A DNA stretch of 63,696 nt, counting the filler, from Conidiobolus incongruus B7586 (Eukaryota): assembly GCA_000697335.1 (NCBI GenBank). It is 10 parts of 10 records of this genome, joined end to end, with 100 filler letters (N's around TTAATTAATTAA, not from the genome) between each part and the next. Parts side by side here need not be neighbours in the genome. Positions count along the whole stretch, not along the records: positions 1 to 1,935 come from JNEM01007131.1; positions 2,036 to 13,321 come from JNEM01007132.1; positions 13,422 to 14,863 come from JNEM01007133.1; positions 14,964 to 18,919 come from JNEM01007134.1; positions 19,020 to 26,236 come from JNEM01007135.1; positions 26,337 to 32,524 come from JNEM01007136.1; positions 32,625 to 34,363 come from JNEM01007139.1; positions 34,464 to 52,245 come from JNEM01007140.1; 2 more parts are not named here. One strand, written 5' to 3'. Within the stretch, counting starts at the first letter, position 1. The number at the start of each line of letters is the position of its first letter. Shown one piece after another: positions 1 through 63,696 of the stretch. A program made the position numbers and the translations under genes. Below the pieces are notes generated by a model, which saw only the letters and a list, made by a program, of their open reading frames with translations, was not told the origin of the DNA and did not search any database.

Positions 1-1466
1 GGTATATTATTTAATAATAAATAAATATATTTAGATATATTTAGTAAACTATTAGCAATAATATTAACCCTTAATATTTAACTAAGGTGAGTTATAAATT
101 TACAGGTTTTTGAGATAAGGGGATATATTTAACAATATATAACCATATCTTTTTTCTTTCTTTGTTATTATTTTATATAATATTTTATAGATATACTAAA
201 TTTTTTTTATTAGTATTATTATACTTAAATCCCTCTTTAAAAAAATCTACTTGTGTATTAATCAACTTTATAAAGAAGGTAAATCAACTTATGATATTGC
301 TAGAATTACTAGTGTTAGTTAGTTTATTATAGCTAAGGTTGTTAAGAATAGCAATAAAAAAACATTTAAACTTAAACTTAAGCATGCTAAAATTATAGAT
401 GAATATGATGAGAAATATATTTGTAGGTTGGTTAATACAGGCAAGTGTAGTACTACAGTAGAAATACAACAGGAATTATAAAACTATATAGGAATATTAG
501 TTAACACTAATACTATTATATGTACTTTACATTAGCATAGATACCACTTACACTTTAAGAAAAAACACCCCCAACTAAAAAAATCCCACTGTAAAACTAG
601 GTAAGAGTTTAAATATTGCTATTAATGCTAAACTAAAACTAATTAGAGTAAGGTTATTTAATCTAATGAAACAAAAATATACTTTAGTGGATCTGATAAA
701 AAAGCTAGATATTTTAAAAAAGATACAAAACTACTTTGTGACTATTATGTTAATTCTACCTAAAAGTATAGTAGTGGGTTAATTATTATTTGGGGATATA
801 TGTTGTCTTTAGGTGTAGGGTATCTTTATAAAGTTAATAAGGGAATTAATATTAAGATGTACTAAAGTATTCTGAATAATAAATTAAAAAAACCATTGAA
901 TAATATAGGTTAAATAAATCTGATGTTATTTTCTAGTAAGATAATGCTTCTTGCTATACTATAGCTTTTACTACCAAATAACTTAAAAATAACAAGATAA
1001 CAGTTATAAAGTAGCTTCTTTAATCTCCTAACCTTAATCTAATTAAATACCTTTGGGATTAGTTAAAAAAAGCTATTAAAGCTTTCCCCCTAGCAAAAAA
1101 TTTAGATCAACTTTAGGAATATGTTTAAGAAGCATAAAACAAGATTAACCCTTCTTAGTGTAAGAAGTTAGTTGATTCTATACCCTACAAACTTAAAGAA
1201 GTTAGAAAAGTTAAAGGTAGATATATTAAGTTTTAATTTTTTTTTATCACCAAAAACCCACAAATTTATAACTCACTTTAGGTAAAATTTAAGGGTTTAT
1301 ATTTTAGCTAATTAATAGCTAAATATCATTATTTAATGATATATATAACTAATAAATATAATAGATTTTAATTATTTAATTTAGGTTTATTTTATTAAAT
1401 ATTAATCAAGTTATTAGTAAAAATATAGGTGTTTTTGATTTTATGACTTATTTTTGCAGGTTAATA
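1..1466 (+). mobile_element. Tc1-like DD34E transposon copy, left end outside window, transposase dead
   Basis: Collinear with copies at 15712, 26127, 29534 and 62519. Degenerate motifs VI*SNETKI, F**DNASCY, SPNLNLIKYLWD. Right TIR ...ttatgacttatttttgcaggttaata ends at 1466, followed by TA. Confidence 0.93.
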
Positions 1467-1646
1467 TATTAAAATATAATTTAACTAATAATATATATAA
1501 AACAAACTAATATTAATATATTATTATTTAAATTTTATTTTTAATTTTTCAAACTAAAAATAATTTAAAAATAATTAATAAATTAAAATTTATATAAATT
1601 ATTTGATATTTATATATATATTAGTTTAAAAAAATAAAATATATTA

Positions 1647-1935
1647 TTTATAAAATAGTAATAGAAGTTACTAATGTAATATAAAGAAAAACTTGATATA
1701 GGGGTAGTATGATATAAAACATATTAATATAACATGGAATATAATATAAAAATATAAACAAAATTTAATTAAGCTTTAAACTAGGATAAGTCACCAATAT
1801 ATTAAAACTTATATTAGATAGCATTAATATTTTATAATATTAAAATAATATAATTTTAATTCTAAAATTAATATAAAAGATAAGTAATAGTAAAAATTTA
1901 GAAAAAAATATTTAATTTACAAAATAATTCAATAT
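1647..1935 (-). repeat. Partial LTR of gypsy family A (reverse orientation, runs into gap)
   Basis: Reverse complement matches the 3' part of the LTR at 34597-34994 and 17286-17472, e.g. aattaagctttaaactaggataagtcaccaatatatt = rc of aatatattggtgacttatcctagtttaaagcttaatt. Left edge approximate. Confidence 0.75.
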
Positions 1936-2035
1936 NNNNNNNNNNNNNNNNNNNNNNNNNNNNNNNNNNNNNNNNNNNNTTAATTAATTAANNNNNNNNN
2001 NNNNNNNNNNNNNNNNNNNNNNNNNNNNNNNNNNN
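1936..2035. other. Assembly gap spacer N44-TTAATTAATTAA-N44 (also 13322-13421, 14864-14963, 18920-19019, 26237-26336, 32525-32624, 34364-34463, 52246-52345, 62419-62518)
   Basis: Identical 100-nt construct with a six-frame stop linker. All nine lie in or beside transposons. Confidence 0.98.
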
Positions 2036-2826
2036 ATTTATATTTAAAATATTAATTATTAGAATTTATAAGAAGGATTGATTTAGTTTAATCTAATATT
2101 TTGTTTTATTTTTAAGTAAAAAATTATATAAAAGAATTTAAGATTTATTAATTATAAATATTTAATATAAAAATCTTTGTTTTTAGTTATAATGTAATAA
2201 ACTTAATTTAACTATAATTAATTTATTTTTTTTAGGTTTTTATTAAATTATAAGATATTTATTTTGTATTTTTATTAATTAAACTAATTTTAAACTTAAG
2301 TATATATAACATACTTATAAAATTAATAATAAGTTACTTTAATAGTTCTTTAATAGAAATAAAACAGTATTTCTTAATATATTTTTTTATTTTATTAATA
2401 AGTAAAAAAGTGATAATAGAAATTAATTTTTTAAATTTTAATAAATTTTAAATAATATCTTTTCTAGCTTTAAAATCACAAATCTAGTGATATATGGTAG
2501 TTTTAAATAAAGCATTATTTTTATAAGTTGTTTATAAGTTTTAGATAATTTTAAAGGGTTTATAGTTAAGTTATAAAAATATAAAAAATAAAAGCTTTTT
2601 GATAATTATTATCTAAATTAAATATAATTAAATTCAAGTATAAATTTTAAAATCAAAATATTATAATAAATAAAATAGTTAAAATTGAGTATATAAATAT
2701 ATATATATATAGTTTGAAAATATTTATTTTCCTATATATTTTATATATAAAGAATCTTTTAAAATGTATAATATATTTAAAGGATCAAAAATTAAAAAAT
2801 TTGCCATTTTTTAATTTCTATACTAA
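2036..2826 (-). mobile_element. mariner (DD34D) copy, 5' part, heavily mutated
   Basis: TIR ttgccattttttaatttctatactaa + TA at 2827-28 is the rc of the left end of the 47469 and 51906 copies. The body is collinear with them. Confidence 0.88.
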
Positions 2827-3269
2827 TATTAATAAAAGATAAAATTATATAACAACAATAATAATAGTATTTTAATAATATTTTAATATTATCATCTGTA
2901 AACTTTTATTATCTATATTAAAACTAAAAGATCTATTTAATATATAATATAAAAGAATTTGATCCAGTTTGAATTATATTGATATTTCTTTTAAAATCAC
3001 AAAAATTAAGAGTGATGTAAATAATTTTTTGAACTATATGAAATAATATCAGTTTTGCCAATTTTTCAAATGCATATTTTTGGTGACTATATTTATAGAA
3101 AGAAATGTATAAATAATATAATACTAATAGTTATTAATTTGGTTAGCATCTATAATTTATATATATATATTAATTATTTATTTAAAAAAATAACAGTTAA
3201 GTCGAATTTGATATGATTAAGGTTGATCTTTATAGTGAATAGGCGTTTCAAGGCCGAATTCTTAGTTTA

Positions 3270-4146
3270 TTTATTCGTTTTCTTCAGTCTATCGGACGGA
3301 TTCATCATCGTCCCTACTAAACCTATATTTATAGAGTACGACATCGCTGTTTGGTTTTGGTAGTAGGAATAGAATTTCTAGAGTCTATCGTAGCGATAGC
3401 CTTCAGTTAAAGCAAATTTTGAATTGAGTGTATATAATCAAATTACTCTGATGAAAACACTCTCACACTAGTTTACTACTTCGGATTCCAGTCCGATAAA
3501 GAAGGCATCTCAATTGAGCGCTAGAGCCAAGTTAGCACTCAGAAACTTTTGATCCCTACTTAAAGTTTCCGTCTTAGGATCGAGACTTCCTGTTGCAATA
3601 TAGGTAATCAATCGCCTGTAACTTTATCGCTATATTAGCCGAAAGGGACGATGGAATAGGCATTGTTACTAGAGTTACCAAGGATGCCAACTTTGACAGG
3701 GAGATGGATGCAAAACAAGTTTCAACTGAGCTCCAATTTATTTTTCAAAACCAATGTTCAATGTACTTGACTTTGGACACCTATAGAACAATTTGAAAGT
3801 TGTTTGCTGGTGAATTTAGTGTTTGAGCAAAATCGAGTTGATCGGTTGGATCGATATCCAGGTATATTTCATCATCGCTATCTAAATACAAATCCACATC
3901 ATTAATATCATCAACATTAGTCAAAGGTGAGGGTGAGGCACTACAATTTTCCTTAACCACAATAGGTTTATCAGTTTAATCATGAGAATATTGGAATGTA
4001 TTGAATGAGCTATAATTGGATGTTTTGCTTTGAGTCTCAGAGCTAGATGCTATAAGATATACATTAGAAAAGTTTGAATTTTGAAATAAAGAGTGTGATA
4101 GGTATCTGAACTTGGAGTAGGATTTTGGCTGTGTTAACATTAACAT
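3270..4146 (-). pseudogene. Decayed coding-like relic of unknown family
   Basis: GC- and CpG-richer island. Minus frame from ATG 4146 reads MLMLTQPKSYSKF...YSHD*TDKPIVVKENCSASPSPLTNVDDINDVDLYLDSDDEIYLDID...VL*VSKVKYIEHWF*KINWSSVETCFASISLSKL..., with scattered stops and probable frameshifts. No motif recognised. Confidence 0.45.
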
Positions 4147-6142
4147 TCCAAATAAAAGAATTTAGTGAATTATTATATAAATCGATAACAACTATAAAAA
4201 ATACATAGTGAATAAATAAATAAATAAAAGTTTCATAAATATAAAATAAAAATGATTCGACTGAGCTTTTTTAGTTGCAATATTACTTAAAACTTTAGTT
4301 CTTAGTGAATTGGATAATTTAGAATTTAATTCTTTACACATTAAATACTTTTTATAGCAAGGATCGTAATTAAAGCTCATATATTGAGAGATAGTTTTAG
4401 GATAAACTTTTAAAACAGTGGTTGTGAACTTAATTTTTACAATATTTAAAATCTATAGCATCAACTATAAAAATGATTGGTTTTGAGCAATAAGCACAAG
4501 TTAAATTCATTGAATGACTGATTAATGTTTTTTATATTGAGTTTAGATATTTTAATTATATGATTTTTTTTCAATTTTATTACTTAAAGTATATTTAATT
4601 CAAATTAAGAACCAAATTGTTTTTGTATAAACCCTTTGGGTTTAAATGTAAACACCTTGATCGATAAATCAAATTAAGAATTTAATCATACTCCTTTTTC
4701 CCTGTTGAATTTGTATATTAGTTCTTTTAGTGATATTAATATCTAATTAAGTCAATTTATTTTTCAGTATTATATTACCAATGTAAAATCTTTGTAATTT
4801 TCTTTGTTAATCCCCCATATTAATTATGAATCGAATAATCTGACAAAGATAACTATCAGTATATGCCAAGATTATATATTAACACAAACACTTAAATCCT
4901 GAACCAAACCATTAATCATGGATCAATTCTTAACCAAAATAAATATTATCCAAATTAAAGTTTTTATTAATGAAATTATTTACCAATAATAAAACTACCT
5001 TTTCTTTATGAGTATATATGAAAGGTAGAAATTAATATTTATTTAGTTTAGCAAAATATGCTTCAAATAACAGTCTAAATGATTAATTCAATTTAATTGA
5101 ACAATATTTATGGAAAGTGTGATATTTTCCAATAAAGTATCATAGATGATTAATATAATGATACAAGGTAGAGTTATCTTTACATTGTTATTAAAAGTTA
5201 TTTTAAATTTAATAAGTATGTAGAAAGCTAGTAACTATTCAATTAAACAGATATTTCATAAAATTAAAATTTTTAATAATTATCTACCAATCACATCAAG
5301 TCTATTATGTATATTAATATATATCATTAGCATTTTATGTAACATGATAATTATAGAATTTTTCATGATCTATGCTTAAATTAAACAGAAATAATGTGAA
5401 AATTGATGAGTTTTTACCTAATTTTGTTCATATTTACATTGAAAATAATGATTTATAAAAATATTAAATATGCCAATATACGCCTTTTAACATAAGATCA
5501 AATTTATTTTATTCACAAAATACTTAATTAATAATAATCAGAATATTATAATCTAAGATTAGGTAATAGAATTTAAATTATAAATATATTTTGATATAAT
5601 ATATTATTGATGATAAATTTGAGAGTTTGATATACTATTTTTAACAATTTAACAAAGTATGTACATTTATCAGATGATCATTACATTTTTTAATTTTCAA
5701 ATCATTACTACCCCTTTATGAGTTAGAATTGTTAAATTATTAATTAAATATTAATTGTTATAATATAATACCTATATTAAAGTACTATACTATTAATATC
5801 AAATGATAACAATTTGGAATTACATGATATTCTTTAGCCTAAGAATTTAAGAGTGAAGATTCGTTTTAGTAATCGTTTCAAATTCTTTTAACTTAATTAT
5901 CAATTACCTCAATTGGGCAATAGGATTTTCACTAGCCTATAAAATTGAAATTCGTCAAATGAATAAATTGAGTACTGTTATCAATTTAATAATTTTAATG
6001 TAAAATAATCATAATTACTCTTTTTCACTTTTAATACCTGTAAATAATTAAGTGATTATTTTTAATTACTATAATTATACCATTATTATTACTGATTGAT
6101 ACCAACTGTTATTCGTATAAATATAATAAATAATAATTTTTA

Positions 6143-7641
6143 ATGCCACCCAAAATTCCACCATTTCAACCTTTAGCACCTAATGACCAACTATATAAGA
6201 TAGCTTGTAAAGCTAATGAACTCTTCGAAAAATGTAATTACAATAGTGCAATTATCGAATATTCTAAAGGTTTGGACCAAGCTAAACCCTTCTCTGACAG
6301 TCGCAGGGCGATGGATTTTATAGCTCTTTTATTGAGTAATAGGTCAGCTTCATACTTTATGTTGAAAGATTTCGAAAGAGCAAAGAAGGATGCTGAGAAG
6401 TGTTGTGGGTTAAGACCTTATTGGGGCAAAGTATGTCTTTATATATTTTCTTAATAATATTTTGTTAAATAGTTATTGTTATTATTCGTTTTTAATAATT
6501 TTTATTTTAGCTATTGAATCTTAATATTAACCGATTAATTAGGGTCATTATAGAAGAGCTGAAGCTCTCTGTGCACAATCAAAATATGACGAAGCTCTAT
6601 ATGCTTATGAAACAGCAGTCAAATTGGTAACTTATTGTAATTTCAATTTTGTTAACCAATATCTTTAATCTTGATAAAATTAGGACCCTTCAAATCACGA
6701 TTTTAGGAGATGTTTATTAAGGACTTGCTTACTAAAAGAGAATCAAACTATGGGTAAATTCAAAATTTTAATTATTAATACTGAATACTAAGCAATCCTT
6801 CAATTCTAAATTAATTAATATTCCAGGGCTTTCCGTAATACAATTATTACCTGGAAGAGATATTGCCATAACAAAAAGACTTAACCCTATTCAGAACAAA
6901 ATCAACCAATTTGCAATTGAAATGAGAAATTTTATTTACATAATAGCTGATACTGATTCTAGACAGTGTATGGTAGTGGATGCTTGTTGGGATACCTCTG
7001 GCATAATAAAAATAATCAAGAAGCATAACTTAACACTAATAGGAATCATTGTAACTCATTACCATTTCGATCATGTTGGAGGTATTCCTCCGCCTCCATT
7101 CGACCAATTTCGAATTAAGGTTAGCGGACTTGCAACAATGTTGAAAAAATACCCTCATATCAAAGCATATATCCATGTCAATGATATACCCTATCTTAAA
7201 GAATCAAACCCAAATATCTCGCATGACCAAATTTACCCTTCAACAGACGACTTGGAACTCACACTTGGGACAAGGACACATTTAAAATTTATTCACACTC
7301 CTGGACATACCTCCGGAAGTCAATGCATTCTTGTCAACGGTAAACGCCTACTTTCAGGCGATACTCTATTCATCGGTAACTGCGGCAGATTGGATTTACC
7401 AGGGGCCAACCCCAAACAGATGTATGATACTTTACAAAAATTACGGAATCTCCCGGATTTTGTGGTAGTTCTACCTGGCCACAACTACGGTGGTGATTGG
7501 ACGACCATTCACCAAGAGAAAGAAATTGGTGTGCTGAAAGAGCAAGCTTATGACGAGTGGATCCGCAAGAAACAATCTAGCCTATCCACCGACCGCGCTA
7601 CAGGCACAGCTAGTTTCGATTCTGGCATTCATCATGTTTAA
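6143..7641 (+). CDS. TPR-domain / metallo-beta-lactamase-fold (glyoxalase II-like) fusion protein, about 418 aa; exons 6143-6430, 6543-6626, 6684-6753, 6827-7641
   Basis: Three GT-AG introns join the ORFs in frame (1257 nt). N-terminal 3xTPR (KANELF...LSNRSASY...WGKGHYRRAEAL...DPSN). MBL motifs THYHFDHVGG, HTPGHT, SGDTLF, GRLDLPG, PGHNY. Confidence 0.9.
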
Positions 7642-8373: not shown

Positions 8374-9533
8374 TTAAATTTTTTTTTCTAATTGAGATTC
8401 TACATCAATATTGACATTCATATGAGCTTCCTTTTTGTATATTGGGAAAATATTAAAGATAAATAAACCTATTACTACGAGAGTGAAAGCTCCATAGTAA
8501 AGCTTGTGAGTCTCCACCTGGAAGGCGAAAATACCGATGACTAAAGTGTAGAAATCGGAGGTTAATAAAGAAATGTTGAAGAATGTAGCACTTGCAAATT
8601 TCATCAATATAGGCGTCAAACTGTATAGTAAGATCATAATAATGGTGAATATAGCAATATAAGCAACTACAATGAGAATTAATGTTAATTTTCAAATATA
8701 TAATAAAATTAAATATATATTAGTTACTTGACATATTTTCAAAGGTCAATTCGTGCCACTCGGAATTTTCCAAAGCTCCCAATTGAATACCACTTATAGG
8801 TAGACCGAACAAGCCTAACAAAGCGATAACTTCATAAAATTCTAATTGGTGAACGAAAAATTCTTGAATAACATTGGAAAAGGCATAAAATGTAGCTCCA
8901 ATAACACAGAATAAATCTCCTAATAAATAATTTTTACCTACATAATAATTAATATTTTAATCTTAAAATATATATTGGGAATAAATACCTTCCCAGTTTT
9001 TGGAAGTGAGATAATCGGAGTAGACTAATAAACCTAAACCTACTAAAGCTAAAACGATACCAAAGAAATGAGTCCAACGATATCTTATCTTTAAAAAGAT
9101 GTAACTTAAAATAACACATGCTGGGGTGGACCATGAGGAGATCAACATTGCACTGATCATATTAGTATGGCCAAATCCTTTCACCACAAAATAGTTGCCT
9201 TCAACATCCATAAGAGCCCAGAATATAACTAGATAAATTATAAATAAATAAATATTGTTTTAATGAAATATTACTTCACTTACTTAAGTACCATTTTTGT
9301 TTAATAATTTGGAAAAACTGTCTGAATCCTTTTTTATAAATAGCGATTGGTACATAAATAAGAGCTAAAAATACGTAGGTAAAAAAACTCTGGGTCATAG
9401 GGATAGTTTTATCCCCAAGGGAAGTGGTCAACAACTGAGTAGTAACATTGGTACCAGTAATACATAGTGACAGTAATTGACCAAATAGAACAATTGACAC
9501 AATGTAGAGAAGTACAGTATCTTTAAAACCCAT
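8374..9533 (-). CDS. SLC35F1/F2-like (DUF914) solute carrier, about 330 aa; exons 9533-9284, 9228-8989, 8937-8728, 8666-8374
   Basis: Three GT-AG introns give a 993-nt frame. Family motifs GQLLSLCITGT, DVEGNYFVVKG, GDLFCVIGATFYAFSNVIQE, SATFFNISLLTSDFY. Multiple hydrophobic helices. Confidence 0.92.
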
Positions 9534-11462: not shown

Positions 11463-12419
11463 TCACAGACTGATTAATGAATATTTTTAACACCAATATC
11501 GATACCTTTTTTAACCAATACCTTTTTATCTCTTTTTGTCTTTTCAAAATTTAAAATATTTTTAAAGCTTACAATCTTTTCAAATATAACTCTTCACAAA
11601 CCTCTCATACCTTAAACACTATTTTTTAATTTTTTCAATACTTTTTAATCATTAATTTTATTTAATTTATATATTAAGGCATTTCAAACGAAAATGTTAA
11701 ACATATAACCCACTAGTAGTTATGTCAATATACAAACTTTTCAATAACTTGATTTATATATAAAATACTCAATTATTAAAGAAAATTTTCTAAATATTGA
11801 TAGCTGTAATATTCCTCATTGAAAATTTACCATTCTTAAATTGAAAAATAATATTTAATTTAGTTATCGTTGCAAGAAAAATGTATTTTGTATTTACAAA
11901 CTATATATCTAAATTTATTATTAATATTATTAACATGTTTCAATTTAATTTTATATTGGATCATATTAATACTGAAAACATAATTCTACATTTTAAATTC
12001 ACAATCCAGTCTTTAAAATTTAATTAATGATAAATTAATTAAAAAAATTCTGTAAACTAATCTATTGTTTTATATTAAATTGATTTAATAATTGATTATA
12101 TTTAATTTTAATTATGTCCAATAATATAATAGTAAAATAATAATAATAATAAAATAAAAATCCAAATGATAATTTTTAATTATTAGTTTGAATAGTCAAA
12201 TTATAATATGAAATTATAAACGCATTTTTTGCAGTTTAATTATCTATGAATATATTATTAGAATTGAAGGATTTAAGCAACGATAATTCTTAAATCATAT
12301 ACTATCTTAATCATTTATATTTAAAAATTTAATTTAATTTATGTTATTGAAAACAAAAATCTAATATGTTTGAATTAGGTTAATTTAAGTATTTATAAAT
12401 TAATAAAATATAAATGATA

Positions 12420-13321: not shown

Positions 13322-13441
13322 NNNNNNNNNNNNNNNNNNNNNNNNNNNNNNNNNNNNNNNNNNNNTTAATTAATTAANNNNNNNNNNNNNNNNNNNNNNN
13401 NNNNNNNNNNNNNNNNNNNNNATTTTTAGTTATTTTATATA

Positions 13442-14863: not shown

Positions 14864-14963
14864 NNNNNNNNNNNNNNNNNNNNNNNNNNNNNNNNNNNNN
14901 NNNNNNNTTAATTAATTAANNNNNNNNNNNNNNNNNNNNNNNNNNNNNNNNNNNNNNNNNNNN

Positions 14964-15513: not shown

Positions 15514-15711
15514 TATTAAGAGACTAATTCTTTAAATTCTTATATATATTTCTATATCATTTAATTAACTATAAATTATAAAATTAATTTATAATATTAT
15601 AACTAATTTAATTATATAGATAGTATTAAATTATTTAATTTTTTTTTCTCAATTCTTACTATTTTTTATTTTTTATATTATTTCTAAAATTAAAATTATA
15701 TTTTATTAATA

Positions 15712-48787: not shown

Positions 48788-51700
48788 TATTATATTAACT
48801 GACAAAAATTTATTTATTTTATCAGATGTTTCAATCAAAAAATATTTATTAATATATAATTTAAAGATTGAAATATAATAATAATTGCATATCAATATTT
48901 AAATATTGATTTTATATAATTATATCTCTGATAATAAGTTAATTAATTAATAGTTGATATAATTAAATTTATTATTATCAAAAGAAATGTTTTTCATTAT
49001 AATCTATATATTGAATGATTAAAAGCTTATTTTCCTTTTGATATAAGTATTTATAATATCAAAGAGTATAGATTATACTAGTCATCTGATATCATAGTTA
49101 TTAATAGTAAACTAGAAATTAATAACCAAGTTTAATTATTGTAGCATCTAAATAATTAATTACTTCAAATTAGGTAGATATTACACATTATCAAGTTAGA
49201 TATTATATTGTTATTCAATATATTTTTCTTTTATTGATTCAAAATCGATTGAATTCAATATTGAATTAAAATATATTGATATACTCTTTCTTTTTTTTTG
49301 CTAATTTAATATTTTATATTTAATATTATAAAACTCTTGTAATACTTCTAATGATTTAGATTTTAAATTTATCTAATTATAAAATCTTCATTGATCATTA
49401 TTATATATTTTTGAATATTATTAGTTCTTGAAGATATATAATAATAATAATAATATAAAAAATTTTACAAACTAATCTTATATATGAAGCTTAAATATTT
49501 TATCATTACACTAAAAATAATCTAATAAAATTTTTATTACAGGTATAATAAATTTATTGAATATGGTGAGAAAATCATTTTAATAATTATTTTCATAGTA
49601 TGTGATATTAAAGTGATTAATTTTCAATTTTTTGTAGTCAATTTAATATCTAATTTATAATATATTAACAGTATAATATTCATTTAATTATTCATATTTA
49701 TTTAAATAAAATTATTTTTCAAAATTCATTGCAGATAATTTCTAAATTTCTTGAAAATATGCAAGGATTAGGTAATGTTGTTCTAGTTTGAATTGAAATA
49801 ACCCAATCTAATTTACTCTCTTTGAATAAATTATAAACAGAAATTTCTAATAGTTCTCTAATTATATCTGATATCCTTTAAAAGATTAAAAAATAAAAAC
49901 AATTAAAATTTTTTATCTAATTAGGAATTCACCCCAATTTAATATTAGAAGATCATTAATAACAATATTGTCTCTATTTCTGTATTTCAAAAATACCTGT
50001 CTGTCTAGATTCGATAGTTAAGTTCACATTACCTCCTGTTCATAGTGGAATTGTTAGTCCATAATCAAATGATATTCTTTAGCTCTTTTATTAGAATTTA
50101 TCCAAAACCTACATCAGTCACTGAATGAATTATTTAAACCCAGAAGTGATAAGAATAAAAAGGATCCAAAAGTTTCTGAATATTTTGCTATGACGTCTCA
50201 ACAGTAAGTTTTAAGACATATAGTCCCAATATGTTCAAGAGGAGGATTAATAAATAATTTACTAAATCTTATTACAAGTACTTCTCTAACAACAATCTTT
50301 ATTTACAAAGCTTCTTATAAAACACAACACTTAATGATATTTAATGAAAATATTACCAAATTTTAAAGCATGAGATAGAATAAATGGATTTTCACATGAT
50401 TTCAAAAAAAAATTTGAAATTAGCTTAAATTAAGAAAATTATTATATATTGAATAAAATTTTAATAGATATTGTATATTTTTGTCAAATAATCTTATAAT
50501 TGATATTAATAGAGAATTAACAAACTATATTTATGGGTAAGAATATCCAATCTATTCATTATTTTACAATACAATGATTATCCTAATATTTTTAAAAATT
50601 TATTCAATTGTATATTTTAATTCAAATATGATTACTTACGATATATACAAATACTTGTTATTAATAAAATATCCGTTCTTCAATGCTTTACATTACTTAT
50701 TAATGCTTTATCTATTAATTAAATCATATTTTAATAATTTAATATATAGATACAAATATTATCGTCTGGAAAACTAATTTCATATTTTAAAAACAGTCAA
50801 ATTTGATATTCAGATTATTTAATTACAAAAAAGAGGACAGAATAATTATATAATTTTATCTCATAGTTTTTATGTCATCTATGGTTTTATTTATTCATTA
50901 ATTAGATATTTATATTAGATCTATAATTAAATCAAGCAAATATTAATTAATATTATATTGTAAAATATATATTTGATAGTTTTGAACAATCTTAAAGAAT
51001 TAATTAATCTTCTTATAAATCTATCATAAATTTTTAATTTATCAGACTCTAGTATATTGATCAACACACAAAGATTGTATCATATATTAAAATCGGCTAT
51101 ATATGTCTTATAAATTTATTTTGGTAACCCTGAATATATTAAATTCAGAAATATATGCTGTTTAGCATTTAAAGCAATATTGTTATTTAATATTTATTAA
51201 TTATCGGATGTTTTCAATGATTATAGTGAAATATTATAAAAACATAATATATTTGTTAATTATATTTTCACTTTAGAATACATCAAATTATATCTCAAAC
51301 ACTCTGTATCTTGTTATATATGAATTTTACTAGATAATTGAATCAAATTTGAAAATGCTTTTTAAATATTTTCAAACAAATACATACAATGATATTAATA
51401 AATATTTTATATATACAAACTATTAATGCGATGTTATATTCAGACATAATTAAATTCAAAAATTCTAATCTTTTAAGAGTCATAATAATTAGAAAAGAGT
51501 AAAAAGCTTAAATAACAGACTTTTTAACTTTTTGGAATATTTAAGAATATTATTTATAATAGGTATCAAACTCAAGTTTAAGTGTATTTATGCTTAATGA
51601 AACTTCTATTATTTTATTTAATTTTTTTCACTTATATAAAGTTTTAAATAATACTAATTGGTCAATTACTGTCATATAAATTTTACAAATTTGACATCAA

Positions 51701-51905
51701 TATAAAACCGATGGTTATTATATCTAATGATAAAACTATATTGTTTAATGAAATCAATATATTACCATATGCATTTAAAATATCCATTGAATATATTTAT
51801 TTGTGTAAGGAAATCTTGAAAATTTTTTAGTTAGATTTTGTTAATTTATAATTAAAAATAGTATCAGAAATCGAGTGTCAATATTAGCCTGTAAAAGCGA
51901 AGTTA

Positions 51906-53072
51906 TTAGTATGGAAATTAAGAAATGGCAAATTTTTTAATTTCCAATCTTTCAAACATATTATACGTTTTGAAAGATTATATATATATAAAATATATAG
52001 GAAAATAAATATTTTCAAACTATATATATATATTCAATTTTAATTATTATTTTTATTAAAATATTTTGATTTTAAAATTTACACTTAAATTTAATCATGC
52101 TTAAACCAGATTGTGATTATCAAAAGGCTTTTATTTTTGTATCTTTAAAACTTAACCATAAACCCTCTAAAATCATCTAAAACTTGCAAACAGCTTATGG
52201 AGATGGTGCTTTATCTAAAACTACCATATATTGCTGGATTTGTGANNNNNNNNNNNNNNNNNNNNNNNNNNNNNNNNNNNNNNNNNNNNTTAATTAATTA
52301 ANNNNNNNNNNNNNNNNNNNNNNNNNNNNNNNNNNNNNNNNNNNNTAGAGTAGCTATAGCTAAACTAAACTTATTAAGGTATAACCAAAAACAAAGGTTT
52401 TTACAGTGAATACTTGCAATTGATGAATCTTGGATTCCTTTATATAATCCTTTACCTAAAAATAAAACAAGATGTTGGGTTAAGCCAAATCAATCCCCTC
52501 CACAAATTCCAATGAATAAGCACTTTGAATATAAGTGAATGTTAATTGTTGTAATAGATTATAATGGTATATAGTCTTCTTATTTAATACCTCAAGGAAA
52601 ATCAATTAATAGTAAGTTATATATTACTTTTTTAAATAAAACAATTTCTAAATGGTGTTCTCAATATAAATTAAGGACACCTATTATTTTGCATGATAAT
52701 TGTAAAATACATAAAGCTAAAGCTGTAAAAGATTTTTTATATAAAAAAATTGGGGGGAGTTACCACATCCAGTATATTCACCTGATTATAATCCATGTGA
52801 TTATAATTGTTTTGGACAATTAAAAAAACAGCTTGCAGGAAAAAAAATTCCTGCAAACAAATTAAATTGGTTTGTGAAACATCAAATTTCAGTCCTTAAT
52901 AAAAAGAACTGTTTTTTAGGTATTAGAAGCTTACCAAAAGTATGGAAAAGAGTTATTAATAATAAAGGAGGCTATTAATTTTATATTATTCATTAATTTT
53001 TATATATTATTTATTAATTTATTTGTTTAATTTTAATTTTAAAATTGTGCCATTACTTAATTTCTGCACTAA
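51906..53072 (+). mobile_element. mariner DD34D, least mutated copy (internal gap)
   Basis: TA-ttagtatggaaattaagaaatggca ... tgccattacttaatttctgcactaa-TA. LAIDESW, ILHDNCKIH, LPHPVYSPDYNPCDY. 34 residues between D2 and D3 after restoring one A in a homopolymer at ~52743-49. Confidence 0.95.
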
Positions 53073-53789
53073 TAATAGCATCTTCAATAGAAAAGTTTCA
53101 ATATATTACATTTAATAAAAGATATTAGAATTGATTTTTTACTAAATATTATTATATAAACAGTTATAATAAATATATCGAATGTACAGATTGAATTCAA
53201 TTAATCAAATATAATTTTCTCACTTCAAGTAGCTAGTATTGGAAAATGTCCTTGTTTTATAATTATCTTGAAAATATATAAAGAAAATTCCACCATTGAA
53301 ATTTAAATACAAACTACAATCTCTAGATTTCTACAAAATTCAAAATGATATAGAAATAAGTAAGATTAATAGTATAGTAATTAATCACTATTAATATGAT
53401 TTATTTTTCAATATTTATGTTTTTTTTCATATTTTACTTTTTTTACTTTTAATAACCAATATAATTTGGAAAAGTTTTATAATAACAAAAATTTTAATAA
53501 TAAATTTTTAAAATCCTAACGAATTAAACATTAGTACAAAATTTATCATAATTTGAATTTTTAAAATTATCTTTAAAAATTGTAAATTACAAATGAAGTT
53601 TAATATCCATCATATATTGGATTGTTATATTATTTGAAAAAAGACAATTTATGAAAAATAAAATATAAGATCATATAAGGGAAATTTAATATTAGTATAT
53701 AAATTAATGAATGACTAAATTTTGAAATCAAAATGAAATAAAATTATTTAAATATAATTCATAAATATTAAATTATAATATTAAATTAA

Positions 53790-54064
53790 TATTTTTTATT
53801 TAATGAACAATTGTTTCCTCTAATTTTATTAAGCTTTTAATTCTTACAGCTAGTTTTTTTATTAAAAACTGAAATTTATAATTTTAAAAACTAAATTATT
53901 AAATATATAAGAGTTTTTTTGTAATTATATTTTAATTACTTAAAATAATTTTCATTATATAGGTTAGGTTTTATTTAATATAGTAGAAAAGATAGCTTTT
54001 TCTAATTTTCTTATATTAAAAATTTTTATAAAATTAGCTTGATTTTTATTGTAATTATTATATA
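53790..54064 (-). mobile_element. Very degraded mariner C-terminal remnant
   Basis: Weak collinearity with the rc of the mariner 3' end (attaaaaactgaaatttata, aattacttaaaataatt). Edges approximate. Confidence 0.5.
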
Positions 54065-54461
54065 TGTTAAAAAATTAGTTTTTAAAGTTCTTATATATAT
54101 TTTTATATAGTATATTTGATTAAAAATTAATCAATTAATTTATACTTTTAATATTAAATTAATTATATAAATAATATTGGATTATCTAATATAATAGGTT
54201 TTTTCCTCTTAATTCTTATTATTTCTTTTTTTTATATTATTTCTAAAGTTAAAATTTATTTTTTGAATATTATAATATATTGGCACTATCTAATATAAAA
54301 TCTAATATTTTAGCGTGGAATTATTTATTTACAAGGCTTAATTAAACTGGGTTTATATTTATATTATCTTGTTATATTATTGGTACTATATTACAAGCCA
54401 TATTACTTTTATATTAAGTTTTCCTCTATATTATATTTATTTTATTACCATAATACTTAAA
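54065..54461 (+). repeat. Solo LTR, diverged member of gypsy family A
   Basis: Starts TGTTAA and is collinear with 34597-34994. No clear TSD. Confidence 0.78.
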
Positions 54462-54959
54462 AAAACAATATCAAATTTAAATATAATATTATTGAATAAT
54501 ATATAGATTTATAATATAATTATTATATATAAAATTAATAACATTTAAATCTATAATTTTATTTTATAAATTATTAATATAGTGGTTTTTGAATTCAATA
54601 ATAAAGAAATTTTTAATATAATTTATTATCTTTAAATATAAGATATATTTTCATTATATCTTTCAATAATATTAAGTATATTAATATAATATATATTAAC
54701 AAAATATTAATATAAAGAGATATTATAGGAATATAATACATTTATGCAATATAAATATATAATATAATGACTAAAATCGAAAAATTCAAATTAATATTCA
54801 AAATCTGTAAAAATTAATTTATAATAAAGAATTGAGTTATAATAATTATAAATTATGAAAAATTATTATTTTGAATAATAATTACAAAATTTATACAGCT
54901 TAATTGGTTAAAGGTTTTCAATATAAAGATATTAAAAAGAATTACCATATTAATTATTT

Positions 54960-55246
54960 TCAATAAATTATAAATTATGTGATTATAGTTGCTTTAGGCA
55001 ATTAAAAAATATGTTTATATGAAAAAAATTCCTTTTAATAAATTAAATTAGTTTACAAAATATCAAATTTCAGTATTCAATATAAATTACTTTTTTAGGT
55101 GTTAGTTGCGAGTCAGAACTATAGCAAAAAGCTATTAATAATAAGAGTAATAATTTTATATTGTGTATTAATTTTTATAAATCATATATTAATAATTCAT
55201 TTAATTTTGATTTTAAAACTGTGCCATTATTAAGTCTCTGTAATAA
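54960..55246 (+). mobile_element. mariner 3' fragment with right TIR
   Basis: tgtgattatagttgctttaggcaatta (CDYSCFRQL). Ends tgtgccattattaagtctctgtaataa-TA. Confidence 0.8.
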
Positions 55247-56763
55247 TACTGTTTTTCAAAATTGATAAAATTTTGGATATCAAATAAAGGTTAAATTATA
55301 AACCCAAGCTTTTAACAAGACAAATCTTTTTATAGTTCAAATGATAAATAAATAATCATTTGATTAAAAAAAGTTCAAAGATATTCAATATATAATGTAT
55401 TTAAATTATAATTTTCAAAAATATTTATTGCAAAATTAGATAATCTTTATTGTTTTGTAACACAATGGAAATTTTAAAATGATTCAATTATAAAAATATT
55501 TATTAAACCAATCTTAAATATTTATTCGAATTTTTATATATATATATTCTTAAGTATTTAAAACGATCAATAATTTCGAAAATAACCATATATTATTGAT
55601 TTTTTAAAATTAATGATATTTCGGATTCAATCTACAACTATATTTGAATTATGGCAAAAATAAAAATAAACAACTAAATAATTATATAGAATATGAAAAA
55701 TATACTATTATATAGCGAAAAAGGGAAAATCAAAAAGATGTCTGCTAATTTGGTATATTAAATCAAATGCAATAAATATACTTCATCAAAACTATAATTA
55801 AATAATAGACTCATAAAAATATACAAAAACTTGTTTAAAACATATAGAAAAAATGTGCTTCAATAAAATATTGGGATAAAGAGGCTAAATAATGGGCAAG
55901 TAAATGTAGAAAATATATCAAGATATGCAGACTCAAGTTTATCACCATTTCTATAATTTCTGTAAAATATCAAACCTTATTTATAAGAGAAATATTTTTG
56001 TCATCAAGCGATTTGTCTAAAATGCTCAAATGTAAGCTTATAACTTTAATAATTATGCTGATTTCAGAATTGTAGTTATGATAGAATGCCACCAAATTGG
56101 TATAATTTTTAAACCTTAAGCAATAAAAAAAATCATTTTGAAAGAGTTGAAAAATATTTAATCAAATAATCCTTTATCATGATTTATTGCATTGTGATAT
56201 GATAATGGATGTAATTCAGTTTGCTTTTTATGAACAATTGAGATATTCAGAGAAACAATATTGAATTAAGCCAGTTGACTCAATTCCTTTCGATATAGAA
56301 TCAAATTAGTGATTAATTGACATGTATAATATATTGCATTTTATATATTCTAAATGAGAAAATAAATATTAATATTATCAATCATTTTTCATTTTTATAT
56401 CAACAAAATAATAAATAAGCAAAAGATTCAAAATTAAGAATACAAATTACCTTGTATGATAATTCGGCAATTAATACATCTAATATTACTAAAAATTCTA
56501 TTAAAAATAAAAAATGGTGCATATCATTACAATCTGGATATCCACAAAATTTAAATTTATATTGTTCTTTGTGGGTTTAGACTTAAGTTGAAGTCTGTGA
56601 AGGAAAACAATATCAAAATCTGAACTAATTAAAGATGAAACCTGAAGAATTATTAAAACACTAACAAAAAAGTGCTTTTAATGAGGTATCACAGTTGTCT
56701 AATACATAGTGAGATATAATACAAAATAATGGTGAAAATTTAATCATTATATTTATTATTGAT

Positions 56764-57097
56764 TGTCACGGGCCGGAGGACCCGTTCGTCCTTAACAATT
56801 CAATTTATTCGAGAACCCCGTCACAGATCCACCTGCAACGTGACCACAAAATACACCCAAGCAATGCAATCAATCGTTCCATCTGACTTACGGTTAGTAC
56901 GCTGGGAAGACACGTCAATCAAACTATAAATATGCCGGCTACAGCCAAGTTATCACGTCGGTCCTCTTCCTAGGGTACAGCCCAATAATCCAGGTTAAAC
57001 AATAAATTACCCCTTTTATATCACCAAACAGGTGCCGTCCCGGAAGACGACTATTTACTTAAAAGTTATTGGACACTTGACTTGCCAGCCAGTGTCA
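56764..57097 (+). repeat. CpG-rich solo-LTR-like unit (334 bp)
   Basis: TGTCAC...GTGTCA termini, internal TATA (ctataaata) and AATAAA. Same length and layout as the adjacent LTR 57125-57459. No TSD or PBS seen. Confidence 0.65.
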
Positions 57098-57124
57098 CTA
57101 TTAATTTTATTTTGGTAATAATAC

Positions 57125-60100
57125 TGTCACAAGTCAGGTGACTCTCCTCCCACATAATATGCTTACTTCAAATGAATATAAGGGTCATCCCCCCCCTCAC
57201 ATAACCAACCACTTCAACCCTATCCTTTAATCAGCTAATGATACAACCCTCTAGAAAACTCCAGAAACCTACTACTCTATGTACTATATATAGAACCCAG
57301 AAACAAAGCTATTTTGCACAGAAGGAGTTTGATCTGGGTCTTCCTAGCTATTTAGCTCAAACCAATAAACCCCTTATCTCCCTAACCTTTACCTGGAATT
57401 CCCTAGATCTCTCTCTTTTGCTTATACTATTCCAGACACAACTTTCCCAAGATGTGTTAATTTGGTGGAGAATTTATACCCTTATCCCCTATTTGCTGAA
57501 GATTATACTATTCAAATATTAATCAATAAGAGTATAATTCCAAAAAATATATAATTGTTAAAAAAAATCAATATGTTTAAGAATAATTTTACCAAAAAGC
57601 ATTGAATACTACTTTTAATATAACAACCTAAAATGAATGAAGAAACTAAGTATTACAACATTAATATGGATAATCATCACTAAAAAGATAATATGATGAA
57701 TAACAAAGAATATGAACCACAAAATAATATTGAAGATTTGAAACAACAACCTGATTTTATCCAAGAATTAAAGAAATCACTTAATAATCTTAACTGTGAA
57801 CAAACCATTACTCTAAAGAAATTAATTGAAAAAGCATCTAAACCAATTAACACCACTTTTGATAATATTAACTTAAACTTCTATAGCAAAAATAACACTC
57901 CTAATATCAAACCAAAAACTCAAATAATAATTAATAATAACAATTTAAACCCAAGAAGTTTTGAAACCAATATTAGTTTTTACATACTATTCAACCTTTA
58001 CAATCTTGTTAATTAGACTAATTAGCTATATTTCAATGTAAAAAAGTTTAATCCCAAAGCATAGATAGAATAAGTTAAAGTGCTAAAGGAAATGTATAAT
58101 GTGCTAGATAATATCACACTAAAGAAGGTTCAAATTATTATTGATTTGAACACTAGCTATTAGCTTAGAAACATTATAAACTATAAACCCAACTTTATAT
58201 AGAATGATTTTGTCAAGAGATTCAAAGAATGCTTTTATAATCTAAATTGTGAATAAGAATTGATCACCAAATTATACTTAGCTAAGATATATCAAAACAA
58301 ATAAGTTGAAGATTTTGCTTACAGGATCAAAAACTAAACTTAATCTCTATAATATAGTTATGATATTAATCTTGTTAAAATATTTAAAAAAGATTATGTC
58401 TAAAAATTTATGAAAGAGTTATTCAAGAATTAATCAACTTTAGCATTAGATTTAAATTTAGTTTCAATAAAATATTAGAATCTATCATTAAGAATGAAAA
58501 AATTATTATAGAAATTGAAAAATATAAACAAAACAATGTTTTCAACAGAAATCTAAATGAGTTTATCAAAAAACTAAATAAGTTTGTAGAAGAAAGTAAC
58601 TAATATCATAAACCTCACAAAAGTTTTTCATAAAAGTTAAGACCTCTGTTTAAATCAAATCACAGCTTTAAAGACACAAGAAATAACAATAACAATTGAA
58701 AATCAAGTGAAAAATCCCTATTCTTTAAAGAAAAAACAGGGAATAAAGAAGGAGAAGCAAATACTAAAGTAGATAATTATTTTATTACAGATTTTACAAT
58801 TAATAATTTATATGAATAAAATACAAGTGAAGTTATAATTAATCCTAATATAATAAAGAAGGATGATAAAGTTATCAATAAGTGTATAGTTATTAACTTA
58901 AATTAGTTAAAACCTAATTTGTTAATATACTATAACCTAACTCTTACCAACCTTTTTTAAAAACTGAATAAATCTTTAGTCACTGAACATAATAAAGATT
59001 TAGTTGAATTATTCATAGCTATGTCTTACAAAAGAAACAAAGATGAGAATTACTCTAGTAAAAATAACAACAAAAAAATTAAATTATCAATTAATAATAT
59101 ATAAAACTCTAAAACAAATAATGATAAATAAGATCTATCAAATAAAGATATATTTATAAAAAAGAAGAATAGATTTACAATTAGAAAAAAAAAATTAAAA
59201 GAGGTTATATTAAAAAAGCTATTAATAAAAAAAATATAATCAAATTAATTTTAAACTATATAATCTAAATTCTACTATATACTTTAATAGAATTATCCCT
59301 AAAATTGAAAACAAAGCTCATTAAACAAATAAATCTAAAAATTCCAAACCAGGCTCTTATAATGAATGTATGTGAAAATATAATATTAGTCTCAAAATTA
59401 CACAAAGAAACTATTCTACTAAAGAAGTTCTTTAAGCATAACATTAATTATAACCTGTTTATATTAAAAGACACTGTTATTAAACTAAGAAAAAATACTA
59501 AAATTAGAACAGGTATTGCTATTACACTTCTAAAAAACATATACACTAAACTTAAATTAAGATCTAGTTTGGTTTATAATAATAGTTTAATAGTAGAAGG
59601 AGGTATAATTAACAATAAATATCATAATAAAATATTTGTAATTCTTAAAAATCAAAATAATACTAACAAATTAGTTAAAAAATAAAGCAAAATTGTATAG
59701 TTAATCTTAATAGAAAATCACCATACTTAAATTATTAAAGTTGAACTTAATAACTTACCATACTCTAACTACAATAAAAAAAGCTTTAAATTTATAAATA
59801 AAATTGAACAAACAACTAGTGAAGATAATTTGCTAATGGGCTTAGGTTGTCCAAAAGCAGAAATCAAAATATATAATATTAACACTATAATCTACATTAA
59901 TGGTAGTGTTGGTAAAGACATTATAAGTTAAGATATAGCAAAATTTATTAGTATTAAAGTATTAGAAGAAACTAATATTATGCTTTAAATACTAAATGGT
60001 ATTATATATCCAATTAGAGAAACTGTTGAAATACCTATTAAAATTACTAATATCAAAATAAAAGTGAATTTTACTGTTGTGGAATCTAATAATATATCTG

Positions 60101-62069
60101 TGTTGTTTAGTTGCTTTTAGCTAAATACTATAAATATAGAAACAATATAGAAAAACAAAATGTTTACAATTAACTTTAAAAACTAAAAAGGTATTCTAGA
60201 TATATTTACAAATAACAAAATTAACAATAGAAGTTTAATTAAAGTATTAGAATTTTATAGTAATTTGATGTTAAATTTTGACAAAAAAATCATAATGAAT
60301 TAATTAAATATTTGTTAAATATTTTAAATAAATAACATGACAAAAAAAAACTTATTGAAATTTTTAATATAAACCTTAGAATTTATGTAAAATCTCTTTA
60401 TGATTTAAATGGAACTAACAAAATCAAACACTATATCTCACTAGAAAATAAAAGCATAAAACTAATCCATAAAGGAATATTAAGAATCTTAGTCTACTTA
60501 CAAGTTAAAATAGAAAAAGAAGTTAAACAAATGTTTAACACTAATGTTATTAAACAATCTAACTTAATATAAGCAAGTAAATTAATTATAGTACCAAAAC
60601 AAAACAAAGGCATTAGACTTTATATTAACTATAAACTAATAAATACTATAACAATTAAAGAAAAGTATCTATTGCTAAATATATAAGATATTATTAACAT
60701 ATTACAACCTAGATTTATTTTTATTATATTCAATCTAATGAGTAGTTATTGGTAAATTTATATGGTTGAAAAAAACAAAATTAAAATAGCTTTTCATATA
60801 TTTTAAGATTACTATTAATTCACTAGAATATTATTTAGATTGATGTTAACCTTGAATATATTTTAAAAATTAATAAATATAACATTTAGCAAGTACATCA
60901 ATATATTTATATATATCTATTTAGATAATGTTATAATATTTTTTAAATCAATTAAAAAATATTTTAAACATATCAATTTGGTATTTTAATCATTTTATAA
61001 TATAAACTTAAAGATTAACTTAGAAAAATTTTATTTTTGTTTGAAAAAATTAATTATTTAGGCTTTGTCATCAGAAATAGAGTTATCAAAACCAATCTTA
61101 GAAATATAAAAAAAGTCAAGAATTTTAAAACTCTTAAAGATAAAACAGATGTGAAAACATTTCTCAGCTTATCAAAATCTTATCATTATTTTATTAAAAA
61201 TTATTCAAAAATTACTGCACTATTTATTAAGTTTACTAAAGAAAAAGTTAAATTTGTATGGTTATCTAATGAAAAAGAAGCTTTTCATACACTTATCAAT
61301 AAATTAACCAGTAAACCTATTTTAACCAGCTTAGATTTTAAAAAAGAATTTATACTATCAACAGATAATTTAGATCTAGCTATTAAAATAGTTCTAGTAT
61401 AGTTAAACTTAAATAGAAAAGAAAAAGCTTGTAGATATTTTTTTAGAATTTTGTCCCCTATAGAAAAAAAATATTCTGTTATTTAAAAAGAAGCTTTTAT
61501 AGTTGTTTCAACTATAACTTATTTTAGAAACTATTTATAAAGCAAGCATTTTATAATTTATATAGATTATATGCTTCTTTATCAGTTTTTGTTTACTATA
61601 GAACCTTTTGCATAATTAACTTGATAAGTTACTACTCTTATAGAATACAATTTTACTTTTGAATATAAACCCAGCAAACATAATAAGAATATTAATAAAT
61701 TAAGTAGATTAAAATTTAAAGTATTATTTACAAAAGAAATTAAAATGATTAATGGAAAAAAATATAATAAAACTTCAGAAAAAATTATTCATCATTTATT
61801 AAGAATAAAATATAATAAAAAGTATAAACCTATAAGTAATATTAGAAACAAATACATTAAATTCAGAATTATTGATAATAAACTATTCAAAGTCAAAAAA
61901 TCTAAAAAAAGTATTATATATAAGTGAGTACCAATTACTAAAGAATATTTTAATATTATTAAAGCAGCTTACAATAATTTAAAACATTTCATAACAATAG
62001 CTACATTAGAAAAAGTTATATCAAATTACTACTAGCTTAACTTTATAAATAATATTAGATCTTATATTA
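57125..62069 (+). mobile_element. Ty3/gypsy element (family C): 5' LTR 57125-57459, PBS 57463-57473, gag-pol pseudogene interrupted in integrase
   Basis: LTR TGTCAC...GTGTTA, then TGGTGGAGAAT (complementary to a tRNA-Ala-type 3' end). Protease-like IYINGSVG ~59890, RT IYLDNVI ~60915 and INYLGFVI, RNase H FILSTD, integrase zinc-binding region ~61955. Confidence 0.9.
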
Positions 62070-62418
62070 TTACCATAGAATTGAAGAAATGGGAAATTTT
62101 TTAATTTCTGATTTTTCAAATGTATTATTAGTTTCAAATAAGCAAATATATTCAAAACAAATAGGAAAATAAATAGTTTTGAATTATATATATATATATA
62201 TATATAATAATTTTTTTAATTAAAAAATGAATTTTTTAAAATTAGTTGTTTAATTTAATCATGCTTAAACCAAATAGTAACTATCAAAAGTCTTTTATTT
62301 TAGTATTAGTAAAACTTAACCACAAACCCTCTAAAATCATTCAAAATTTACAAACAGCTTTTGGTAATAAAGCATTATCTAAATCAACAATTTATTGCTA
62401 GGTAAATTACTTTAAGAG
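62070..62418 (+). mobile_element. mariner 5' end inserted into the gypsy integrase, runs into gap
   Basis: TA-ttaccatagaattgaagaaatgggaaattt. MLKPNSNYQKSFILVLVKLNHKPSKIIQNLQTAFGNKALSKST. Confidence 0.9.
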
Positions 62419-62518
62419 NNNNNNNNNNNNNNNNNNNNNNNNNNNNNNNNNNNNNNNNNNNNTTAATTAATTAANNNNNNNNNNNNNNNNNNNNNNNNNN
62501 NNNNNNNNNNNNNNNNNN

Positions 62519-63696
62519 TTTTACCTAAGGTGAGTTATAAATTTGTAGGTTTTTGGTGATAAAAAAAAATTAAAACCTAGTATATCTACCTTTAGCTTTT
62601 CTAACTTCTTTAAGTTTGTGGGGTATAGAATCAATTAACTTCTTACACTAGGAAGGGTTAATCTTGTTCTATGCTTCTTGAATATATTCTTAAAGTTGAT
62701 CTAAATTTTTTGCTGGGGGGAAAGCTTTAATAGCTTTTTTTAACTAATCCCAAAGGTGTTTAATTAGATTAAGGTTAGGAAATTGAAGAGGCTACTTTAT
62801 AACTATTATCTTGTTATTTTTAAGCCATTTGGTAGTAGAAGCTGTAGTATAGCAAAAGGTATTATCTTACTAGAAAATAACATTAGATTTATTTAACCCA
62901 TATTATTCAATGGTTTTTTTCAATTCATTGTTTAGAATACTTTAGTACATTTCAGAATTAATTCCCCCATTAACTTTACAAAGATACCTTATACTTAAAG
63001 ACAATATACATCCCTAAACAATAATTGACCCATCACTATACTTTTGGGTAGAATTAATATAATGGTTATAAAGTAGTTCTGCATCTTTTCTGAAGTATCT
63101 AGCTTTTCTATCAGATCTACTAAGGTATATTTTTGTTTCATTAGACTAAATAACCTTACTCTAATCAGTTTCAATTTAACATTAGTAATGACATTTAAAC
63201 TCCCACCTAGCTTTATAGTGGGATTTCTTTAGTTGGGGGTGTTTTTTCTTAAGGTGTAAACAATATCTATGCTAATATAAAGCATGTATAATAGTATCAG
63301 TGCTAACCAATATTTTTATATAGTTTTGTAGTTCCTGCTATATTTCTACAGCAGTACCACATTTGCCTGTACTAACTAACCTATAGATATACTTCTCATC
63401 ATATTCATCTATAATCCTAGCACACTTAAGTTTAGGTTTAAATGTTTTTTTATTGCTATTCTTAACAACTTTAACTATAGTAGACTAGCTAACACTAGTA
63501 ATTCTAGCAATATCACAAGTTGATTTACCTTCTTTATAAAGTTGATTAATACACAAGTGGATTTTTTTAGAGAGGGATTTAGGTATAATGATACTAATAA
63601 AAAAAATTTAGTATATCTGTAAAATATTATATAAAATAATAGCAAAGAGAGAAAAAAAATATGGTTATATATTGTTAAATATATCCCTTTATCTCA
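62519..63696 (-). mobile_element. Tc1-like copy, both ends missing (gap and window edge)
   Basis: Collinear with 15891-17068; differs by transitions. Confidence 0.93.

Follow-up and report, generated by a model that had tools for sequence, protein, structure and literature searches.

The transposons in a 63,696-nucleotide stretch of DNA deposited as Conidiobolus incongruus B7586 (GCA_000697335.1), henceforth referred to as the window, have been hypermutated in one direction, from C to T, with the target order CpG > CpA > CpT > CpC. CpG is absent throughout positions 1–3202, 12283–35643 and 57050–63696. The comparisons below support confinement of the change to repeats, with neighbouring genes spared. 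The process resembles repeat-induced point mutation (RIP) as well as the Dim2 mutator but departs from each in one defining property, since RIP takes CpA first and the Dim2 mutator spares CG.

Hypermutation of the transposon copies

The repeats identified in the window are listed here by position and strand.

1..1663 (+): Tc1-type DNA transposon c1, truncated at the window start and free of CpG (self-BLAST and alignment)
15712..17284 (-): Tc1-type c2, the least mutated copy, between TA dinucleotides; Pfam DDE_3 E=4.2e-11, HTH_Tnp_Tc3_2 E=2.9e-08
26337..27911 (+): Tc1-type c3, within gypsy 1; its start precedes a gap, at 26123–26236
29531..31107 (+): Tc1-type c4, the most mutated copy, in the 3' long terminal repeat (LTR) of gypsy 1
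62519..63696 (-): Tc1-type c5, cut by a gap and by the window end
13431..14863 (-): Tc1-type c6, diverged, excluded from rate counts
22491..31260 (+): gypsy 1; LTRs 22491–22862 and 29319–29530 plus 31104–31260; RVT_1 E=0.0061
57124..62010 (+): gypsy 2 (LTR, gag-like region, reverse transcriptase (RT), RNase H), right end approximate; RT_RNaseH_2 E=3.4e-21, RVT_1 E=0.00076
19102..19900 (+): what remains of the RT of a third gypsy-like element; over 126 aa it is 40% identical to that of gypsy 1 (E=5e-17, the two sequences being AT-biased); no Pfam match
20231..21669 (-): mariner-like subfamily B; further copies at 32969–34363 (+) and 62055–62416 (+), an older one at 12410–13321 (-)
47466..48796 (+): isolated mariner-like copy surrounded by unique DNA, 1 CpG
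51904..53077 (+): isolated copy across a gap, 1 CpG inside; DDE_3 E=0.0027; presumably mariner, by a motif
53683..55255: old isolated repeat relics with background-level CpG
1..2884: repeat block A (Tc1 c1, an unclassified repeat, a mariner-like piece at 2036–2884)
12356..35210: block B, the main transposon cluster, 22,327 called bases
57124..63696: repeat block D (gypsy 2, a mariner-like piece, Tc1 c5)

An earlier sequence-only reading had reported that every difference in a Tc1 alignment of about 280 nt was a transition, and this was reproduced: positions 792–1082 against the reverse complement of 16105–16388 gave 29 transitions, no transversions and 11 gap columns. Over 1177 columns there are 120 transitions and 2 transversions between c1 and c5, and 88 and 2 between c2 and c5; of the 329 columns that vary in the five-copy alignment, 293 show C/T or G/A. 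The same reading extended the pattern to mariner and all three gypsy families. This holds for the gypsy 1 LTR pair (53 transitions, 7 transversions), but purity is lower in the mariner-like pairs (93:11, 74:31 and 106:58), and comparisons between terminal inverted repeats were too diverged to use (8:21 and 11:14). For the other gypsies, the evidence consists of zero CpG and decayed RT motifs, as no second copy, including one of gypsy 2, was found within the window.

The c2 transposase frame (16958–15942, -) keeps its length of 1017 nt, as had been described, with 10 premature stops (8 TAG, 2 TGA); the Trp and Gln codons named as targets make an incomplete list, as Arg codons are changed too. 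Source-sample contigs over c2 (run X1) showed the Tc1 family to be repeated genome-wide, with transitions at 331 of 345 variable places. This comparison registers same-site recurrence, private transversions falling below its 3% threshold, and the contigs may be the window's own sample. Runs X5 and X7, under the same species label, each gave one short piece matching c2 and were not used.

Confinement to repeats

The following regions served as controls.

6142..7641 (+): host gene for a TPR and metallo-beta-lactamase (MBL)-fold hydrolase; also the phylogenetic marker
8374..9516 (-): host SLC35F transporter gene; Pfam SLC35F E=1.7e-24 and 2.5e-16
42360..44099 (+): intact Zn2Cys6 transcription factor gene
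44843..46548 (+): Zn2Cys6 pseudogene, a tandem paralogue at 59% identity with many stops and frameshifts; 19 CpG kept
3351..3712 (-): UHRF1-like SRA-domain pseudogene, frameshifted, within the stretch 3200–4150

Blocks A, B and D together hold 31,608 called bases and no CpG, against about 127 predicted from the observed/expected ratio (o/e) of 0.53 in unique non-coding DNA (Poisson about 1e-55); base content alone predicts 18.7, 142.3 and 77.5, respectively. GC content is alike in the two compartments, at 16–22% in the repeat blocks and 18.7% in unique non-coding DNA, where 18,068 bases retain 84 CpG, with a CpA o/e of 1.13. CpG o/e is 0.59 in exons, 0.44 in the Zn2Cys6 pseudogene and 0.80 in the stretch around the SRA pseudogene. 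The 300-nt flanks of the repeats have indices of the unique-DNA type, and between the two Zn2Cys6 paralogues there are 340 transitions and 346 transversions, which run both ways. The earlier statement that host genes and unique DNA keep CpG was thus borne out, by a test of confinement that is a compositional control only. The gcga motif reported outside the mariner at 51906 is present at 51897–51900, 6 nt outside the boundary, but this copy also has an inner CpG (51966).

Direction, context and rate of change

Polarity was taken from four intact transposases with 48–54% identity to the Tc1 copies; 31 of 233 conserved codons were dropped for want of a compatible source codon. At 179 variable positions within conserved codons, the relatives match the C/G allele alone at 107 and the T/A allele alone at 5, with both matched at 24 and neither at 43. 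Codons made only of A and T are retained (Lys 74/75, Ile 57/60, Tyr 25/25). At 26 columns conserved for Arg, no CGN codon is left and 65 of the 130 codons derive from CGN, while Trp columns read TAG 20, TAA 20, TGG 9 and TGA 1 times.

None of the 13 CpGs fixed in the relatives survives in any of 65 observations (now TA 31, TG 18, CA 16). The fraction lost falls from CpA (144/223, 0.65) to CpT (91/200) and CpC (79/365). Independently of the relatives, nine reciprocal TG/CA columns show CpG lost in 44 of 44 observations; 12 such columns occur in the mariner-like copies, and the two termini of c2 (15712, 17284) differ as TG and CA at one place, a reciprocal loss of one CpG inside a single element. 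Gypsy 2 and block D have no CpG yet retain a CpA o/e of 0.92, which indicates that CpG was lost first. The 3' neighbour has a far larger effect (0.14–0.66) than the 5' neighbour (0.23–0.37), and a TpCpG restriction was not seen among the 18 CpG cytosines scored. The earlier description of the targets as mostly CpA with some CpT is true of pairwise differences, the retained C in the 29-transition alignment lying in 18 CpA, 10 CpT and 1 CpC. As a description of the target it misses CpG, which comes first and is invisible in pairwise comparison because no copy retains one.

Both strands of the elements are changed. Strand-coordinated tracts, a feature of single RIP rounds, were found in none of five copies (permutation P 0.41–0.92), although after many rounds such tracts would be blurred. 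In a simple runs test there was a slight tendency to clustering (z -0.5 to -1.4), which disappeared once site layout was preserved.

Derived alleles common to two copies are near independence (114 vs 118, 59 vs 57; highest 22 vs 15), and most changes therefore postdate the insertion of each copy. Private transversions in 1173 columns number 1 each in c1, c2 and c5, 7 in c3 and 13 in c4. In the three young copies (c1, c2 and c5), 245 of 1155 C/G observations show the change, which puts its rate at 280 times that of transversion or, conservatively, 84 times. Only sites at which some copy keeps C entered this set; c6 and the older mariner-like pairs were excluded as diverged. By context, the ratio of C-to-T change to transversion (conservative value in brackets) is 415 (116) at CpA, 241 (66) at CpT and 95 (20) at CpC, and at least 445 at CpG, for which the site set requires two mutated copies to be visible. 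A CpA ratio of 50 was rejected (2dlnL, twice the log-likelihood difference, 58.7). Copies that match in transversion count differ in mutation load (116/266, 74/267, 99/267; P=0.0006).

Host placement and methyltransferases of relatives

The TPR-MBL exon shares 84% identity with C. coronatus KXN72584, 87% with one other protein and at most 65% with Basidiobolus; no named ascomycete occurs among the best 120 of 7334 hits for the MBL exon. In a quick one-gene tree of 32 rows the MBL exon pairs with C. coronatus (SH-aLRT 100), and the zoopagomycete group around them has a support of 84. By this sequence evidence the host is a Conidiobolus relative in the C. coronatus group (Zoopagomycota) and probably a species other than C. 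coronatus, in agreement with the Conidiobolus/Entomophthorales-like affinity first proposed. The placement uses one gene, as a search with the Zn2Cys6 protein returned only five relatives. An ascomycete host was rejected. Scanning metagenomes twice for the host locus gave 117 and 80 pattern matches, none of them confirmed.

The supplement of PMC9915587 lists DNMT1 (KXN74494), UHRF1 entries and HELLS for C. coronatus, and gives DNMT4 (RID), DNMT5 and DNMT3 as not detected; RID is reported mainly in Pezizomycotina (PMC5751038). In the tree of PMC9915587, KXN73869_Conidiobolus falls in the Dim-2 clade with support of 99.9/97. Rows 71 and 73 of supplement 2 of that paper, in which KXN73869 stands as a Coemansia Dim2, appear to have slipped.

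A candidate mutator without RID

We somewhat favour a transposon-targeted mutator that is independent of RID, in which DNMT1 would act at CpG and a Dim-2-like enzyme at CpA and CpT. New insertions would be marked as heterochromatin, the DNMT1–UHRF1 pathway would methylate CpG and the Dim-2-like enzyme CpA and CpT, and the methylated cytosines would become T at an enzyme-driven rate, probably while the fungus grows vegetatively, like the change driven by Dim2 in Zymoseptoria tritici. The elements would be killed by stops arising at Trp, Gln and Arg codons. Large clusters would remain marked, so that new CpGs would be continually purged there, while isolated old relics would drop out. The target ranking would be explained by these two layers, for which the lineage appears to have the enzymes. 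The decayed UHRF1-like SRA gene of the window was counted in favour of this mutator; two reading frames, one after the other, align with adjoining parts of the UHRF1 SRA domain (E=9e-4, with 11 of 11 hits to UHRF1/2, and E=0.63).

In Z. tritici, the number of mitotic mutations per line rises from about 13 to about 170 with an intact Dim2; >95% are C to T and >98% of those at CA (PMC8016269). As described there, the change is confined to methylated repeats, as it is repeat-confined here, shares the strong CpA component and proceeds without a sexual cycle, whereas CG is spared in Z. tritici and CpG is lost first, with CpT and CpC also changed, in the window. Z. tritici is moreover an ascomycete, while the present host is a zoopagomycete for which we infer the Dim-2-like enzyme.

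Several points weigh against the proposed mutator. Because Z. tritici Dim2 spares CG, loss of CpG requires a second route. The enzyme list comes from a relative, C. coronatus, and would have to hold for this host; the table of PMC9915587 gives Dim2 as not detected in its Conidiobolus row and places KXN73869 under Coemansia. C. coronatus itself is scored no_rip in PMC12543289. The rate ratio depends on three transversions in one family. The age of the "old" repeats was judged from relatives within the window only. Finally, the sharp edges, the fully mutated isolated copies, the spared 59% paralogue and a spared short LTR-like piece (56765–57123) suit homology sensing equally.

Alternative explanations

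That last point bears on a true RIP analogue, of independent or pre-Dikarya origin, in which homologous pairing near zygospore formation would be followed by a burst of mutation by a methyltransferase-like enzyme. We regard this as unlikely, though well worth weighing. All repeat classes are mutated, isolated copies included, with sharp edges; load differs among copies of equal transversion count; and the composite RIP index exceeds zero in 61 of the 126 windows scored. The spared paralogue and the 359-bp LTR-like piece, whose copies were counted in the window only, match the thresholds of about 80% identity and 400 bp (PMC2621366), and a RIP-index signal and two-domain methylases are described in Entomophthorales (PMC11105155). 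The spatial evidence cuts both ways. At eight repeat boundaries, the nearest outside CpG lies 6, 75, 76 and 102 nt away at four and 243–450 nt away at the other four, against a mean spacing of 215. The isolated mariner-like copies keep 2 CpG against 10.3 expected, and an isolated old relic 3 against 3.6; in block B, 8786 bases of old decayed repeats keep none against 17.3, counts that favour targeting by chromatin domain. The 359-bp piece and the 59% paralogue escape mutation, and heavily diverged cluster DNA is nonetheless CpG-free. The window is thus compatible with homology sensing and with chromatin domains alike. What speaks against the RIP analogue is CpG as first target, its absence from that diverged cluster DNA, the lack of strand-coordinated tracts (with the blurring noted above), and RID, which is not detected for C. 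coronatus in PMC9915587 and mainly Pezizomycotinan in PMC5751038.

Comparison with RIP proper is similarly mixed. Like RIP in Neurospora crassa and other Pezizomycotina (RID/Masc1, that is DNMT4), the process is one-way, repeat-confined C-to-T change that takes CpA and then CpT among non-CG sites, keeps frames while stops build up, and leaves AT-rich blocks with a positive composite index. Unlike it, CpG is first here, strand tracts are missing and RID is not detected in the relative C. coronatus. Two further traits that define RIP are the sensing of homology and its premeiotic timing. In Tuber melanosporum (CpG and CpA) and Pucciniomycotina (CpG/TpCpG), loss of transposon CpG is likewise linked to the DNMT1/Masc2 class, and Tuber has a CpA layer (PMC4352252, PMC3318451). 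The window differs in showing no TpCpG restriction (18 CpG cytosines) and in its heavily changed non-CG sites; Tuber, according to the same sources, has RID.

Slow hydrolytic deamination of densely methylated transposons, without any mutator, would also put CpG first, change both strands and leave no tracts. CpG-context 5-methylcytosine is reported on repeats in Phycomyces and Linderina (PMC11258239), and CpG signatures have been put down to methylation and deamination (PMC4352252, PMC3318451). The ratios of at least 445 at CpG and 116–415 at CpA, and the mutation of 30–65% of non-CpG sites, which are usually weakly methylated, stand against this reading. Human CpG transitions run at about 30 times transversions, far below the ratios found here, so passive decay is strained and we consider it improbable.

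Editing of transposon DNA or reverse transcripts by an APOBEC/AID-like deaminase would account for dense one-way C-to-T change, but is very improbable and was rejected, as DNA transposons are mutated equally on both strands, the 3' neighbour outweighs the 5' and no clustering is seen. Genome-wide AT-biased mutation or an assembly artefact is just as hard to credit: unique non-coding DNA has only 18.7% GC and a CpG o/e of 0.53, the control there being compositional, and the scaffold contains nine gap linkers, but general AT bias was rejected because unique DNA of equal GC and both pseudogenes keep CpG. The balanced differences of the paralogue pair and the independent source-sample contigs with the same transitions also argue against it.

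Further features of the window

The CpG-rich LTR-like piece is the unmutated exception.

56765..57123 (+): LTR-like piece abutting gypsy 2; GC 43.5%, 17 CpG, o/e 1.05

Its first six bases are those of the gypsy 2 LTR, its length is similar and it has TATA-like and AATAAA motifs; similarity to the LTR is otherwise weak, and no second copy was found within the window. It may have escaped as young, single-copy or too short for targeting. The SRA pseudogene, a dead gene for a 5-methylcytosine reader, adjoins a CpG-free block. A tRNA-Pro(AGG) gene (11391–11462, -) retains its CpGs. Unclassified AT-rich repeat families lie among the transposons at 14964–15711, 31264–32522, 34464–35119 and 54043–54519. 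The nine artificial gap linkers, each of 100 bases (12 fixed bases with 44 N on either side), start at 1936, 13322, 14864, 18920, 26237, 32525, 34364, 52246 and 62419; elements run on across at least two of them, and the scaffolding therefore looks real.

Relation to earlier reports and significance

The suggestion that the window records an undescribed genome defence was too strong, as a RIP-index signal is already published for Zoophthora radicans, with a composite index of 24.2% and RIP outside Dikarya suggested with caveats (Stajich et al. 2024, PMC11105155); the paper warns that its candidate enzymes cannot be taken as RID. Z. radicans belongs to the same fungal order, and the evidence given there is a dinucleotide index only, whereas direction, context and rate are taken here from alignments, with CpG leading. 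A 2025 kingdom-wide screen finds RIP-like signatures in ascomycetes only (PMC12543289), and its no_rip score for C. coronatus speaks against extending the result to the genus. A screen based on the enrichment of AT-rich words may lack sharpness in a genome of 28% GC. No alignment-based report for Conidiobolus was found in a literature search whose coverage left out most subscription papers.

The window provides alignment-level evidence of repeat-confined C-to-T change of RIP strength in a Conidiobolus relative. We tentatively suggest, at rather less than even confidence, that zoopagomycetes run a RID-independent DNMT1–UHRF1/Dim-2-like mutator of RIP strength, that hypermutation predates Dikarya with RID a later specialisation, and that current RIP screens overlook it where genomes are AT-rich. 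Should DNMT1 and Dim-2, without RID, prove to be the enzymes, the host would offer a natural system for how a methyltransferase converts C to T, and the finding would bear on the small genomes of the Conidiobolus grade as against the swollen genomes of Entomophthoraceae.

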